Shown here: positions 7,697 through 13,357 of the stretch, piece by piece
Layout of the letters: every line of letters starts with the position of its first letter
Numbering within the stretch: position 1 is the stretch's first letter
Origin: Escherichia coli
Lineage (GTDB): Bacteria > Pseudomonadota > Gammaproteobacteria > Enterobacterales > Enterobacteriaceae
Direction: 5' to 3' (one strand)
Length of the DNA stretch: 64,000 nt
Assembly (NCBI RefSeq): GCF_041248615.1
Contig: NZ_CP158426.1
Notes under the pieces: model-generated
The model's database searches: none
The model's input: the letters and a program-made list of their open reading frames with translations, nothing else
Told to the model about the DNA's origin: nothing
Translations under genes and position numbers: made by a program

Positions 7697-8416
7697 TCAG
7701 AAGTAGGTTGTCCAGAAAGAGGAAACTGGCATCGCCAGTACCAATGCAGGAAGCATACTGGCTACCGGGAAGACCTTGATACCGGAAATACGCAGGCCGG
7801 TCGCCACCATTAGAACGCCACCCACAGCTGAAAAGTCGGCCTGCATGGCAGGCGTGGTCAGGGGCAATATATATATCGCGCTGTAGGCGAGTGCTAACTG
7901 AATGATAAGCTGGGGGAAAGCGACTAATGCCACGGCGTAACCCAGGGTTGTGGCAAAAATGAGGGCGGTCAGCAAATCCAGGAACGCTTTCGCGATAAGG
8001 ATACTCGAGTCCCCGGTCATGCCTTCGTGCATCGCACCAAAAATACCGGTGCCACTGGCACAAAAAAGGACGATGATCGCCACATAGTTTTGTAAAAACT
8101 GCGCCTGTGAGTCTTTGTCTCCGGGATCGCTTTTCACGACGAGCTCCACCAACCCACGGGCTTGTCCGCCCAGGTGGCTTATCCCTTTTTCCAGATAGCA
8201 GAGCTCGCCCACCAGTGTGCCGAGAAGGACCGATAGAACCATGACGGGCATATGGCTGACACTTGTCACAAGGACGATCCCCATACACAGGGAGGCAGCA
8301 CCAAAAATGAGCGGCATTGAGGTACGTAACCTTTCAGGTAGACGTGAGCTAATGATGGCTCCTGCCATCCCGCCGATCACGACGGCAGAGCCGTTGAACC
8401 ATGGGCCTGTAATCAT
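7697..8416 (-). CDS. DUF554 family inner-membrane protein (YqgA-like)
   Basis: Hydrophobic 239-aa ORF; recalled similarity to E. coli YqgA including NYVAIIVLFCASGTGIFG and ILPLTTP; overlaps UbiX-like stop by 4 nt. Confidence 0.7.
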   Translation of the reverse strand: MITGPWFNGSAVVIGGMAGAIISSRLPERLRTSMPLIFGAASLCMGIVLVTSVSHMPVMVLSVLLGTLVGELCYLEKGISHLGGQARGLVELVVKSDPGDKDSQAQFLQNYVAIIVLFCASGTGIFGAMHEGMTGDSSILIAKAFLDLLTALIFATTLGYAVALVAFPQLIIQLALAYSAIYILPLTTPAMQADFSAVGGVLMVATGLRISGIKVFPVASMLPALVLAMPVSSFWTTYF

Positions 8417-9027
8417 AGCGATTTACTCCTGTTATTCAGGTTGGGAGTTTCACCCCAGCGCGGCAATGTGTCGCAATCAAGGTCGAGTAAACTCAGCGCC
8501 CGCGCAACACTATGAGCGAAGATGTTCTCAGTACTTGCAGGGCGTGCATACCAGGCAGGTACGGGTGGAAAAATGATGCCGCCGGTTTCGGTAACCTGAA
8601 GCATGTTACGAAGGTGCCCGGTATGCAGCGGCGTTTCCCGTACCATCAGAACCAGCCTCCGGCGCTCTTTCAGGGTCACATCGGCTGCCCGCACCAGCAA
8701 ACTGTTGGTTAAGCCCGCCGCAACAGCGGCGAGGGTGTTCATAGAGCAGGGGACAATCAACATCCCGGATGCCCTGAACGAACCGCTGGCGATGTCGGCT
8801 GCAATATCATCAAAGGGATAAATTACATCAGCCAGCTTATGAACGTCGTCTTCTGACAAAGTGGTTTCCAGACTGCGGGTCAGATGAGCGGCAGGAGAAA
8901 TCACAACGTGACTTTCCACGTTAAGTTGTCGCAGATAACGCAGGGCCTGCACTCCATATAAAAAACCGGATGCACCACTGATCCCAATGATGACGCGCTT
9001 GCGAGGAGAACATTCAGATGTCGACAT
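8413..9027 (-). CDS. UbiX/Pad1-family flavin prenyltransferase
   Basis: N-terminal VIIGISGASGFLYG motif typical of UbiX; 204 aa; directly downstream of UbiD-like gene. Confidence 0.85.
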   Translation of the reverse strand: MSTSECSPRKRVIIGISGASGFLYGVQALRYLRQLNVESHVVISPAAHLTRSLETTLSEDDVHKLADVIYPFDDIAADIASGSFRASGMLIVPCSMNTLAAVAAGLTNSLLVRAADVTLKERRRLVLMVRETPLHTGHLRNMLQVTETGGIIFPPVPAWYARPASTENIFAHSVARALSLLDLDCDTLPRWGETPNLNNRSKSL

Positions 9028-9037
9028 TATGGCGTCC

Positions 9038-10522
9038 TCAGTACTTGAAGTTATCCGGGAGGAAACGACTGATCTCGACCTCCATGAATTCGCTGCGGCG
9101 AAACTGGCCTTTCATCGTGAACGGAACGGTACAGTCGAAAATAGTTTTACAGGCGATCCCGTGGTCGCGGACGGAGTAACTAAAAGCCGGGTCAGAGGAC
9201 GGATCGAGGGGATGGCACCTTACGCCGGGTATGAACACCGTGCTGATATCCCCCTGATAGCGTGTCGTCATTGCCCATATCACGTCATTGAGATCGAAAA
9301 TATCCACATCGTCATCAACCAGAATCACATGCTTGAGTTCCGAGAATGCGGAGAAGGCCAGAAGAGCCGCCTGGCGCTGACGACCTTCATCGTTTGGCAG
9401 ACGTTTTTTCACCTGCAATACGGCAAGATATTTTCCGGTCCCGGGTGACGGGCAGTGAACATTTTGCACAAAGCCGGGAAGGGCGCGCTCCACCAGTTGC
9501 AGAATACTGGCCTCGGTGGGGATCCCTGCCATATTGGTATGCTCGTCACTTGGACCAATGCAGGTCTGTAGAATTGGGTGACGGCGGTGGGTGATGGCTT
9601 TCACTTTTATCACTGGCACCATTTGCTGTGCCTGTCCGGTATAGCCGGGGAATTCCGGCATGGCTTTACCACTGTTGGTATTTTGATCCTCCCTGACCCG
9701 ATAGTTAGGAATGAGTTCCCCCTCGATAACGACTTCGGCGTTCGCAATGGCCCGGGCATTCACGGTCAGACACTGGCACAGCTCAACAGGCTGTTTACGC
9801 AAGCTCCCTGCCACTGACAGTTCGTCAAAACCAAGTGGAGTTGTGGGCGGTTCGAAGCAGGCACCGATTTCAATGGCTGGGTCAACACCAATGCTGATCG
9901 AGATGGGAAGTGGGGCCCCATCTTCCTCTGCTTTCTGACGGAACAAATCCAGATGCCGACCGGGAACGAAGTACATGGATATTTCATCCCTGTTTTGCAC
10001 GCACAGTCGGTGAATAGTGATGTCATGCTCGCCGGTATGTGGATCGGCGGCGTAGCACATACCGAGAGTGAAGTAAGGACCGGCATCCTCCGGCGTATTC
10101 GTGGGTGCTGGCAGGATATTGAGGATACTGAAATCCGGATCGGATGCCAGATGGACTACTTCCTGACAGACGGCATTTTCCTGCGGAATAACGACAGGAC
10201 TTATCGGGGTGCTTACCGCGTCTTTCAGTAAAAAGGCCAGCTTATCGGGTGTGGTATCCAGTAGCCGGGCCACGCGTTTTCGCGAGGCGAGAAGACCTAT
10301 CAGCACTCGCATATCGGTATAGCCTTTAATCCGGTTAAAGAGCATGGCTGGACCGATACGAGTCGGACGCATGACCGTACCGTGTGCCCCAATGTAGCGG
10401 TACACCCCTGACAGTTCTGCACTTGGATCAACGGGTTCATCGGTTTCGATAAGCTCATCATCAAACTTGCGCAGTACGGCCAGCGCACTGCGTAGGTCAG
10501 TCACTTTTTGTGTTTGAGACAT
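9038..10522 (-). CDS. UbiD-family (prFMN-dependent) decarboxylase
   Basis: 494-aa ORF with UbiD-like size and sequence character; paired with UbiX-like gene as in non-oxidative aromatic acid decarboxylase operons. Confidence 0.8.
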   Translation of the reverse strand: MSQTQKVTDLRSALAVLRKFDDELIETDEPVDPSAELSGVYRYIGAHGTVMRPTRIGPAMLFNRIKGYTDMRVLIGLLASRKRVARLLDTTPDKLAFLLKDAVSTPISPVVIPQENAVCQEVVHLASDPDFSILNILPAPTNTPEDAGPYFTLGMCYAADPHTGEHDITIHRLCVQNRDEISMYFVPGRHLDLFRQKAEEDGAPLPISISIGVDPAIEIGACFEPPTTPLGFDELSVAGSLRKQPVELCQCLTVNARAIANAEVVIEGELIPNYRVREDQNTNSGKAMPEFPGYTGQAQQMVPVIKVKAITHRRHPILQTCIGPSDEHTNMAGIPTEASILQLVERALPGFVQNVHCPSPGTGKYLAVLQVKKRLPNDEGRQRQAALLAFSAFSELKHVILVDDDVDIFDLNDVIWAMTTRYQGDISTVFIPGVRCHPLDPSSDPAFSYSVRDHGIACKTIFDCTVPFTMKGQFRRSEFMEVEISRFLPDNFKY

Positions 10523-10651
10523 TACGTTTTCCTCAGTAAGTCGCCGGGAGACAGCATGCCCGGTGTGCTTTTATCTTCATCCTGCAGGCAATCACAGGAC
10601 GAGCCGTTACATCACTGACAGTATGTGAGGCAACATAAATCCCCGTCTAAT

Positions 10652-10675
10652 CACATTAACGACGTTTTTAATGTG
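10652..10675. promoter_or_regulatory. Interrupted palindrome CACATTAA-N8-TTAATGTG, candidate LysR-type regulator binding site
   Basis: Located in divergent intergenic region between the UbiD-like operon and the LysR gene; dyad of the kind used by LTTRs. Confidence 0.4.
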
Positions 10676-10710
10676 GGATTGTTATCGAAAAATAGTGATT
10701 GGAGGAACGT

Positions 10711-11592
10711 GTGGACTATCGGTATTTGCATGCATTTGTGGTGCTTGCCAGAGAACTGCATTTTGGAAAAGCCGCACTGCGGCTCAACATCACGCAGCCA
10801 GCCTTAAGCCGTCAGATTAGAGTGCTGGAAGATCAGCTTGGCATGGTGCTATTTACGCGTGATCGTCGTCATGTGGCGCTGACTGTGGAAGGAACTCAGC
10901 TTGCAGCGGAGGCGCGGAGCGCCGTCAGTCATTACGAAAAAATGCTGAGCCGTGCGAGTAGCCTTCGAAAAGGCTATAAAGGACAACTCATACTGGGTTA
11001 TGTCGGATCTTCCATTCTTGATCCCGCCCTGACACGGTTAATCACCTGTTTTCGCGAGACTAAACCGGATGTTGAGATTGTTATTGAGGAGCACAACGTT
11101 GACGAACAGCTCACCCTCCTGCTCGACCATCAACTGGATATGGGGCTGCTCCGATCGCCTGTTCCGCATTTTGCCAACCTGGACTACGTGGATATCGCCA
11201 CCAGGTCACTCATCGCCGCAGTACCGCACACGCATCCGCAGGCAGGAGTCGGTAAAATAGAGCTGGAGACGTTGTCCGGGGATACATTTATGATCCAGAA
11301 AGATCCGCCCGGGGTCGGGCTAGGCTGGTCTGCATTACATGCCTGTGAGATGGCCAGTTTTGTCCCACCCAAAATCTATTTTACTCGCGATGTTGCGGTG
11401 GCTATTGGCATGGTGTCGATGGGAATAGGAGTTACGCTGGTGCCAGAAACCCAGCGTTCTGTAACGTTGCCTAATGTCTGCTACTGCCTGCTGCACGATC
11501 CCGAGGTCACAACGACCTTAACGCTTTGCTGGCCGAAATTCAGGAAAAGCAGGGAATTGATAGAGTTTGTACGCTCTTTAACGCTTGGTTGA
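10711..11592 (+). CDS. LysR-family transcriptional regulator
   Basis: N-terminal HTH LHFGKAALRLNITQPALSRQIRVLEDQLG; GTG at 10711 with GGAGG 5 nt upstream (ORF track starts at TTG 10699); divergent from decarboxylase operon. Confidence 0.85.
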   Translation: MDYRYLHAFVVLARELHFGKAALRLNITQPALSRQIRVLEDQLGMVLFTRDRRHVALTVEGTQLAAEARSAVSHYEKMLSRASSLRKGYKGQLILGYVGSSILDPALTRLITCFRETKPDVEIVIEEHNVDEQLTLLLDHQLDMGLLRSPVPHFANLDYVDIATRSLIAAVPHTHPQAGVGKIELETLSGDTFMIQKDPPGVGLGWSALHACEMASFVPPKIYFTRDVAVAIGMVSMGIGVTLVPETQRSVTLPNVCYCLLHDPEVTTTLTLCWPKFRKSRELIEFVRSLTLG

Positions 11593-12133
11593 ATCTTAAG
11601 AAGCTGCAGTTGAGTCATAGCCAGCGATCAAAATTGAGAAGACAAAACCGGGGAGAGGTGCCCGCAGTTTCTGCCCCAGCTCCCATCTTCAGGAAGATGT
11701 GTTTCAGGAATGCATTCGTGATGCTGGGGATAGCGGCAAGACGATTTTCTCATCGGGTAACTCTGCGGTATCGGAACAGTTGACGACGGCAGGGTGGTGA
11801 ATGGGAACCTCAGGATGAAGCGCTCGGGCAAGAGGGATGGACTGTGCTGAAGAGAACACTGACAGAACGAGCATGATGCTTGCAAAAAGGGGACTCTGGA
11901 TATTCATTGTTTATCTCCTGATGATATTCATCGCTCCAGAGAATACGCTTGCCACTCTTTTTATTTGTTTTCCTGAATTAAAAATGCCCGGTTTTATGTG
12001 GTTCTTCCGTAAACGTTATTACATTAATTAACATCTAGTTTCTATCTCCGAAATGAGGTAAAAAAATAATTGTCGTGGTTTTTATCAAACAAATTTACCG
12101 GCAGCTCAGATCCGAACTAATACCTGGAAATTC

Positions 12134-12182
12134 AAACCCCAAACCCCAAACCCCAAACCCCAAACACCAAACCCCAAACACC
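12134..12182. repeat. Tandem heptanucleotide repeat (AAACCCC/AAACACC) x7
   Basis: Read directly: four AAACCCC, then AAACACC, AAACCCC, AAACACC; complementary strand is (GGGGTTT)n. Confidence 0.9.
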
Positions 12183-12412
12183 ATTTCACCGCTGGCGTGT
12201 AAGGGGCTCTATATCTGTTTATTCAGGGATAGTTTTTTCTCCCGTGTGATTTCCGTTCATGTATCTGCTTCCGGTTAATCGTTTCCCAGCACAACCCGTC
12301 CCGCAAGGGTAAATGGCACGCCTGCTGCGCCCTTGCGGGATGGAACGATGCCGGGAAAGCGAACCGTCAGGCGATACGAAGACGAAAATCACACCACTGA
12401 CGGAGAAAAAAA

Positions 12413-13357
12413 ATGACTATGTCCCTGCATACCAAGATAAGTGCCCCTAACACGACAGCGGCGACCAGCGTATCCTCGCTGGATCTGTCAGGCTCCTCAA
12501 AAACGAAATGTTCAACAGCCAGAACCGATATTTATCAGACTGTTACCGACAGCATAATTGCGGCGCTGGAAACCGGAGTAAAACCTTGGGTGTGTCCTTG
12601 GCAGCGAGCTCCCGGTATGTCCGGTTTACCGTCCAATTACGCCACTGGTAAGGCTTACAGCGGAATGAATATCATGTTGCTTTGGTGCAGCGCGTCAAAA
12701 CAGGGATTCTGTGATTCACGCTGGATGACCTACAAACAGGCAAAAGCGGTAGGTGGGCAGGTGCGCAAGGGAGAACACGGCACTACCGCGATTTTCTATA
12801 CCACGCTGGAAAAGGAAAATGATAACGGAGAAACTGACTATATTCCTATGCTGAAAGCATTCACTGTGTTTAATGTTGAACAAATTGACGGTTTACTCCT
12901 GAGTGATGATGCCGTTTTTCCGGCAGAGATCTTTGAGCCATTACCACGTGCAGAAGCACTTTTTCGTAGTAGCGGTGCAACCATTATTGAAAAAGGACAG
13001 AATGCTTTTTTTACACCATCAACCGACGAAATTCGCTTACCTGAACGGTATCTTTTTATTGATGCTGCTAATTTCTACGCAACCGGCCTGCATGAGCTCG
13101 TTCACTGGAGTGGGGCAAAAAGTCGGCTGAACCGTGAAATGAAAGGGAAATTTGGCAGCGAGGGGTATGCGTTTGAAGAGTTGATCGCTGAGCTGGGGAG
13201 CGCATTCCTGATGGCGGATCTGGGGATAGTTGGAGAAGTTCTGCATGACAGTTATATCGCTTCCTGGCTTAAAGCACTGAGGAATGATAAACGCTATATT
13301 TTCAAGGCCGCCAGCGCGGCATCGAAAGCACATCGCTATTTGATGGATAAAAGCTGA
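12413..13357 (+). CDS. ardC: ArdC-like antirestriction protein (ssDNA-binding N-domain plus zincin-like metallopeptidase C-domain)
   Basis: DIYQTVTDSIIAALETGVKPW N-terminal ArdC-type motif; HExxH motif GLHELVHWSG in C-terminal half; hairpin after stop. Confidence 0.75.
   Translation: MTMSLHTKISAPNTTAATSVSSLDLSGSSKTKCSTARTDIYQTVTDSIIAALETGVKPWVCPWQRAPGMSGLPSNYATGKAYSGMNIMLLWCSASKQGFCDSRWMTYKQAKAVGGQVRKGEHGTTAIFYTTLEKENDNGETDYIPMLKAFTVFNVEQIDGLLLSDDAVFPAEIFEPLPRAEALFRSSGATIIEKGQNAFFTPSTDEIRLPERYLFIDAANFYATGLHELVHWSGAKSRLNREMKGKFGSEGYAFEELIAELGSAFLMADLGIVGEVLHDSYIASWLKALRNDKRYIFKAASAASKAHRYLMDKS

Follow-up and report, generated by a model that had tools for sequence, protein, structure and literature searches.

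BenM and CatM of Acinetobacter baylyi use a regulatory site of the form ATAC-N7-GTAT together with weaker activation sites. This geometry of the BenM regulatory site has been described (PMC11495319), and a dimer of LysR DNA-binding domains reads a 13-bp site over two adjacent major grooves (PMC11495319). In LysR-type transcriptional regulators (LTTRs) generally, the primary site is a palindromic T-N11-A motif near -65, which overlaps the regulator's own promoter; weaker contacts run past the -35 of the target, and LTTR genes nearly always adjoin such a primary site (PMC4834489). In such divergent promoters the primary site serves repression, and a secondary site, for activation, is placed near -35. 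The lys box of PltR in Pseudomonas aeruginosa M18 is a 22-bp palindrome (9-N4-9) that is bound by its regulator, lies at -74 to -53 and contains T-N11-A (PMC3382589). For the native regulator of aroY-type operons, our literature search found no relevant paper. Similarly, we found no experimental work in the literature on the aroY-linked LysR proteins of K. aerogenes or K. pneumoniae.

We analysed a stretch of 64,000 nucleotides of Escherichia coli DNA, hereafter the window. The first-pass annotation of the window had reported an interrupted palindrome in a divergent promoter of about 190 bp between a LysR gene and a decarboxylase gene, and had proposed it as the operator of the LysR protein. 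The divergent setting was borne out. A regulator with HTH_1 and LysR_substrate domains faces a UbiD-family operon across a gap of 188 bp (10523-10710). The genes are as follows.

7697-8416, minus strand: DUF554 membrane protein (PF04474), the last gene of the cassette, which co-occurs in most orthologous loci
8413-9027, minus strand: UbiX flavin prenyltransferase (NF004685, 241 bits, above the cut-off)
9038-10522, minus strand: UbiD-family, AroY-like decarboxylase, 494 aa, start codon at 10522, leading gene of the divergent operon
10711-11592, plus strand: LysR-type regulator, 293 aa, GTG start, with HTH_1 and LysR_substrate domains

The GTG start of lysR at 10711 was taken from the RefSeq annotation of an identical E. 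coli locus and from the alignment of orthologs, all of which start with MDYRYL. A Shine-Dalgarno sequence, GGAGGA, is found at 10701-10706. The recognition helix of LysR (residues 28-37, encoded at 10792-10821) reads TQPALSRQIR. The best named relatives of the protein are AlsR, HcaR and BenM, each far under the family cut-off; of the solved relatives whose function is named, BenM is the closest (full length, E about 2e-28). The decarboxylase matches solved structures of the 3,4-dihydroxybenzoate (protocatechuate) decarboxylases AroY (PDB 5o3n, 5ny5 and 5o3m) with E about 1e-204. Its score against NCBIfam VdcC, 455 bits, is under the cut-off of that family. UbiX supplies the prenyl-FMN cofactor to UbiD enzymes.

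The four-gene cassette DUF554-UbiX-UbiD/LysR was present in five of 5426 complete E. coli genomes. It is an accessory island among mobile-element and defence-type genes; the region 7697-13357 of the window holds it together with an ArdC gene at 12413-13357. The identical RefSeq locus carries the cassette and its mobile-element neighbours within a span of 1-24601, where ISApl1, an ABC-three-component system, an AAA ATPase, MobC, a type IV coupling protein and TrbM are found near the cassette. Plasmids of Enterobacter and Klebsiella carry the cassette at about 73% DNA identity.

The palindrome is present at 10652-10675. Its left arm CACATTAA (10652-10659) and right arm TTAATGTG (10668-10675) flank the 8-bp spacer cgacgttt (10660-10667), and all eight pairs of CACATTAA-N8-TTAATGTG are complementary, making it a perfect 8-N8-8 inverted repeat. 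A sequence search gave this single match within the 64-kb window. We used first-order Markov resamples as the chance model for inverted repeats (arms of at least 8, spacers of 0-20). The window holds 46 distinct perfect 8-bp repeats of this kind, against 18.8 +/- 4.0 in the resamples, and at least one was found in 4.3% of resampled 188-bp gaps. By itself, the palindrome is only modestly unexpected, and its weight comes from its location and from the comparison with other loci.

The first-pass annotation had also argued from the T-N11-A motif of LTTR sites. For the palindrome this argument fails, as twelve bases after T10656 and T10657, its only candidate Ts, come T10668 and T10669 in place of an A. 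The symmetric T/A pairs of the repeat are T-N12-A and T-N14-A, and the palindrome cannot hold a symmetric T-N11-A because the length of the dyad is even. A smaller, odd palindrome, AACGACGTT at 10658-10666, is nested in the spacer, its centre displaced by 1.5 bp from that of the main dyad. Among the sequences compared, those of E. coli and Citrobacter alone have it; in Yokenella the stretch reads AACAACGTT. Two outer inverted repeats, AATCCC/GGGATT and TCTAATCAC/GTGATTGGA, showed no conservation and were dropped. A third copy of ATGTGA, at 10623-10628, was judged a coincidence: Enterobacter has GTGCGA there, and the copy overlaps the predicted -10 of the decarboxylase.

The repeat can fold into a stem of 8 bp capped by a loop of 8 nt, so it might act as an RNA or DNA hairpin, for example as a terminator, an attenuator or a processing site. 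We regard this as extremely unlikely. With a minimum free energy of -7.6 kcal/mol, the fold is no more stable than those of shuffled sequences (z = 0.07). The repeat lacks a G+C-rich stem and a T run, the terminator scan found no terminator at the palindrome and the Rfam search gave no match for it. In addition, it lies upstream of both predicted start sites.

The palindrome might also be the site of another DNA-binding protein, either a global regulator of the host or a factor encoded on the island. The segments TCACAT/ATGTGG resemble CRP half-sites in the opposite order, and the spacer carries the nested AACGACGTT. However, the conserved cassette has no second regulator gene, and the nested palindrome is limited to E. 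coli and Citrobacter. Extra copies of the palindrome or of the conserved box described below, which could be a sign of a regulon, were not found beyond chance in the 64-kb window. A CRP-like site was rejected, because the order of the arms is the reverse of the TGTGA-N6-TCACA of CRP and the flanking partners match at only 1-2 of 5 positions. Recognition by another protein is quite improbable.

For the comparison with related loci, we collected 25 orthologous LysR/decarboxylase intergenic regions, in which LysR is 36-100% identical to that of the window. A DNA-pattern scan of metagenomes gave another 19 loci, which belong to the same clade as the window. A tblastn search for more LysR orthologs on plasmids gave nothing new. 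The cassette with a divergent LysR gene was found in Citrobacter gillenii and Yokenella regensburgei (LysR identity 98% and 91%), on plasmids of Enterobacter and Klebsiella variicola (about 75%), in Rouxiella, Rahnella, Pantoea and Erwinia (57-66%) and in twelve further loci from public assemblies (46-88%). The classical aroY loci, in K. aerogenes (54%) and in K. pneumoniae (36%), likewise have a divergent LysR gene, as does a ubiX-ubiD locus of Pantoea dispersa (37%). In total, the divergent pairing of LysR and UbiD is retained in 24 of the 25 orthologous loci, over the whole range of LysR identity from 36% to 100%. The control region 10523-10710 is very probably the operator of the adjacent LysR, and to this extent the earlier proposal stood. 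The part of it that assigned this role to the palindrome did not stand, as the palindrome is not conserved as a unit and the T-N11-A box found across the family overlaps only its right arm.

The 25 intergenic regions could be aligned without gaps over 43 positions starting from G10645 (position p is the window coordinate minus 10644), and the information content was computed across 20 non-redundant ortholog sequences. Two conserved boxes were identified.

10645-10653: conserved box GTCTAATCA (family consensus GTCCAATAA), to the left of the palindrome and overlapping the start of its left arm
10670-10686: candidate primary LysR site (RBS), AATGT-GGGATTG-TTATC, with T-N11-A, overlapping only the right arm of the palindrome

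Full invariance (2 bits) is confined to A5, A6 and T7 (10649-10651), A27 and T28 (10671-10672), and A40 and T41 (10684-10685). Nearly invariant in the 20 non-redundant sequences are G1, T2 and C3, which carry 1.5-1.7 bits in the left box next to its invariant A5, A6 and T7, and T24, T35, T38 and T39. T28 and A40 together form T10672-N11-A10684, which is present in all 25 loci. In most of the distant orthologs, whose LysR is at most 67% identical, the right box is a clean GATAA-N7-TTATC dyad, with 4-5 of 5 pairs complementary in 13 of the 16. It is this box, overlapping the palindrome, and not the palindrome itself, that is conserved in the orthologous promoters as an interrupted dyad with T-N11-A. 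The left box is a candidate for a promoter-proximal (activation-site) contact of LysR, for the -35 of the decarboxylase or for both. The segment ATAA/ATCA (p6-9) in it is 21 bp away from ATAA/ATGT (p27-30) in the right box.

These features can be compared with those of BenM and CatM. Like them, the regulator of the window faces an aromatic-catabolism gene across a divergent promoter, and further half-sites are found one and two helical turns away. The family box GATAA-N7-TTATC shares with the BenM site the 4/5-N7-4/5 arrangement and the T-N11-A geometry. On the other hand, the identity of the two proteins is low, the score against NCBIfam BenM (102 bits) is far under the cut-off of 600 bits, and the half-site of the family is ATAA (ATGT in the window), not ATAC. 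The candidate primary box of the window has also lost most of its symmetry.

Conservation of the palindrome was much more restricted. All eight pairs are complementary in the near-identical loci of E. coli, Citrobacter, Yokenella and P0002. In the rest of clade A, in which LysR is at least 72% identical, 4-7 of 8 pairs are complementary. The remaining 16 orthologs have 2-4 of 8, close to the chance level. The mean information content is 0.71 bits for the left arm and 1.35 bits for the right arm. This asymmetry would be expected if the primary site included the right arm only. In clade A the outer arms, CACA/TGTG, are nearly invariant. The arms are not always preserved as a dyad, however. In K. 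aerogenes an Enterobacter-type left arm (CACAT) and spacer (GTCCAATCACATTTCCCCT) occur together with ATAAG replacing the ATGTG of the right arm. Clade-A variants with an identical recognition helix (ITQPALSRQIRVLE) include two types with ATATG in place of ATGTG (L106/107/118/122 and L117) and one with A15 changed to C in the left arm (L115), and none of these changes is compensated. Most likely, the perfect 8-N8-8 symmetry is specific to this lineage and does not mark the conserved recognition unit.

These data also bear on the possibility that, in the lineage of the window, the 24-bp palindrome itself is the primary recognition dyad of LysR. A single domain dimer might bind the inner ATTAA-N8-TTAAT (T-N12-A), or the inner domains of a tetramer might bind CACAT and ATGTG. 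Besides the perfection of the dyad, this possibility draws on the 6-8 of 8 pairs kept in four sub-lineages with LysR at least 72% identical, on a single compensated swap, of pair 13/26, which is T:A in E. coli but A:T in P0003 and P0016, and on the degeneration of the ancestral box in clade A to 2-3 of 5 pairs. Even-length LTTR boxes exist, such as the 22-bp lys box of PltR (PMC3382589), and the dyad TTGATAAG-N6-CTTATCAA upstream of the aroY-linked lysR of K. pneumoniae is also of even length. Finally, the helix of clade A has R34/R37, where the others have Q/L34 and K37. Against this possibility, T-N11-A is missing inside the palindrome. The outer pentamers, its best-conserved part, lie 19 bp from each other, centre to centre, which is more than a single LTTR domain dimer could span (PMC11495319), and conservation is lowest at the inner bases, whose geometry would be suitable. 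The arm changes described above are uncompensated under an identical helix, in K. aerogenes the left arm occurs without its partner, and complementarity is at the level of chance in the 16 more distant orthologs. We consider primary recognition of the palindrome unlikely.

The recognition helix TQPALSRQIR is found in all orthologs that are at least 75% identical. The 72% ortholog has S-W-H-I-K, and the distant helices read S-(Q/L)-(H/Q/Y)-(I/V/L)-K or T-Q-Q-I-K. The change of the helix parallels that of ATGTG versus ATAAG in the box, but from the aligned sequences this parallel is only suggestive. A co-variation of helix residue 34 with ATGTG/ATAAG was set aside, as it is weakened by the occurrence of ATATG under an identical SRQIR helix and by the unchanged TTAT half-site. 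A related scenario is a turnover of the operator in the lineage with LysR at least 72% identical. The ancestral GATAA-N7-TTATC at -65 would have decayed to a bare T-N11-A, a new 24-bp dyad, CACA(T/A)(T/A)AA-N8-TT(A/T)(A/T)TGTG, would have arisen 14.5 bp nearer to the target promoter, and the helix would have changed concurrently from Q/L34 to R/W34 and from K37 to R37. As a whole, this chain of events is doubtful. If it were true, the regulator would bind in a different register or geometry, possibly with changed regulatory logic.

The palindrome resembles the PltR box in being long, interrupted and of even length, and in lying between a lysR-type gene and its target operon. It differs from that box in its 8-N8-8 structure, its AT-richness, its lack of T-N11-A and its lack of conservation across orthologs. 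The aroY loci of K. aerogenes and K. pneumoniae share with the window the divergent arrangement of a UbiD/AroY decarboxylase and a LysR gene, although their operons lack UbiX and DUF554. K. aerogenes has the same frame, there GTCCAATCACAT...ATAAG-N6-TTATC, whereas K. pneumoniae has TTGATAAG-N6-CTTATCAA at a different spacing (T-N12-A) and position. In the aroY-lysR gap of K. pneumoniae (L090, 3699-3818), this dyad is a perfect 8-bp one and is accompanied by an extra copy of TTATCAAT. Because it precedes a LysR that is merely 36% identical, a GATAA-type half-site appears, by these sequence comparisons, to be common to a wide group of AroY-linked LysR regulators.

A simple consensus scan for promoters found nothing at threshold in the gap. 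We also ran a weight-matrix (PWM) scan on all 25 orthologs, which gave the following candidates.

10620-10625, minus strand: predicted decarboxylase -10, CATACT (family nAnACT), with an implied start site at about 10613
10644-10649, minus strand: predicted decarboxylase -35, TAGACG (TGGACn in orthologs)
10680-10685, plus strand: candidate lysR -10, TGTTAT (TATTAT in several orthologs), on the right half of the T-N11-A box
10688-10693, plus strand: alternative candidate lysR -10, AAAAAT (the two lysR -10 candidates overlap or abut the box)

The decarboxylase candidate keeps its aligned position, and ranks third or better by PWM, in 18 of the 25 orthologs, and AGT.T of its -10 is invariant in alignment A3. 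With the predicted start at about 10613, the centre of the T-N11-A box (10678) is at -65 and that of the palindrome (10663.5) at about -50.5. For lysR, the predicted start would be near 10692 or 10700, and a -10 ending at p41 was obtained in Yokenella, P0002, K. variicola, Rahnella and K. aerogenes. The candidate -35 hexamers of lysR, 10656-10661 or 10668-10673, come from the PWM scan and are sub-threshold in the consensus scan. Together, the candidate -10 and -35 hexamers of lysR overlap both the T-N11-A box and the palindrome. Since the candidate -10 coincides with the right half of the box, binding of LysR there would repress lysR. A minus-strand sigma-54 promoter was dropped, because its GG-N10-GC spacing, seen in the window as GGGGATTTATGTTGC, is missing from the Enterobacter orthologs.

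The predicted promoters raise the question of whether the boxes are simply overlapping promoter elements of both genes, with no dedicated operator, the palindrome being a chance occurrence in AT-rich DNA. The sequence GTCyAAT contains the TGGACn candidate for a -35, and TTGATA (p24-29) and TnTTAT (p36-41) resemble the -35 and -10 of lysR. In addition, chance alone would give an 8-bp inverted repeat in about 4% of such gaps and would account for about 40% of those in the window. Promoter hexamers would not be expected to show the symmetry of GATAA-N7-TTATC in the distant orthologs, however, and the invariance of the positions exceeds their match to the sigma-70 consensus. LTTR genes also nearly always adjoin an operator site (PMC4834489). 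We find an explanation by promoter elements alone rather unlikely. Against the operator reading, the invariant AT...AT could in part be lysR promoter elements (a TTGATA-like -35 or a TnTTAT -10).

In the comparison with the canonical LTTR promoter, the gene arrangement and the invariant T-N11-A agree. The predicted position of the box at -65 and its overlap with the lysR promoter candidates would also fit, and conservation extends to the target -35. The palindrome departs from the canonical promoter, being centred at about -50.5 from the predicted start and having no T-N11-A. On balance, we lean slightly towards the reading, drawn from the aligned sequences, that the palindrome sits in the operator/promoter core of a canonical LTTR divergent promoter in which the T-N11-A box anchors LysR. 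The box of the window is a poor dyad (2 of 5 pairs) while the palindrome is perfect, which counts against anchoring by the box. Judging from the alignment, the high-affinity site could have shifted in the lineage of the window.

From the sequences, their conservation and the gene pairing, we infer the start sites, the binding of LysR, the direction of regulation and the effector as follows. LysR would bind as a tetramer across roughly 10639-10686. The T-N11-A box at 10670-10686, about 65 bp upstream of the predicted decarboxylase start, would be the anchoring high-affinity site, and protein bound there would both repress the lysR promoter and be placed to activate the decarboxylase promoter. 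A second pair of domains may reach promoter-proximal DNA at about 10639-10661, where the left arm and the GTCyAAT box lie. In this arrangement the right arm of the palindrome would serve as the left half of the T-N11-A box, with the left arm beside the GTCyAAT box and the -35. An aromatic-acid effector acting with LysR would then activate the decarboxylase-UbiX-DUF554 operon; an aromatic acid such as protocatechuate is the probable inducer.

Biologically, this is a routine LTTR arrangement, and the pair in the window is an uncharacterised regulator and operator of a standard, well-known type. If the model holds, the pair works as the native switch that controls a decarboxylase cassette of the AroY (protocatechuate) type. 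This cassette travels between Enterobacterales by way of plasmids and an integrative element that is rare in E. coli. AroY enzymes are in wide use for muconate and lignin-valorisation engineering. As no paper on their native regulator was found, a defined LysR/operator pair could find use as a biosensor part that responds to the cognate aromatic acid. The case also shows, for the scanning of genomes, that the most striking palindrome in a LysR divergent promoter is not necessarily the conserved recognition box.

Several minor observations were made in the window and at the orthologous loci. In the minus-strand 5′ UTR of the decarboxylase, a hairpin, CCGGG...CCCGG, lies at 10544-10563, about 10-30 nt upstream of the Shine-Dalgarno sequence. 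Hairpins of other sequences are found at the same place in Enterobacter, K. variicola and P0003 (CCGGAAGA-N4-TCTTCCGG; CGGTAGG-N4-CTACCG). The same location with differing sequences suggests that the decarboxylase leader may hold a conserved structure. RNAalifold gave no consensus structure for this 5′ UTR with 10 diverse orthologs.

At locus L101 (2431-2500), a LysR ortholog with 60% identity, in a 5.4-Mb genome, directly adjoins DUF2810, with neither the decarboxylase nor the conserved operator block. In the syntenic Pluralibacter locus (L097, 2349-2500), UbiD is still present between DUF2810 and LysR. From this synteny, the L101 regulator looks like an orphan left behind by a deletion. In Erwinia sp. 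ErVv1 (L015, 2955-3003), the ATG of lysR is about 5-6 nt past the conserved TTAT, compared with about 25 nt elsewhere. This could mean a leaderless mRNA, with TTAT as the -10, or a mis-placed start. On the E. cancerogenus plasmid (L003, 3119-3730), UbiX is missing from the gene table and was recovered by tblastn as two pieces in different frames (residues 1-45 and 45-197), so the gene is probably frameshifted.
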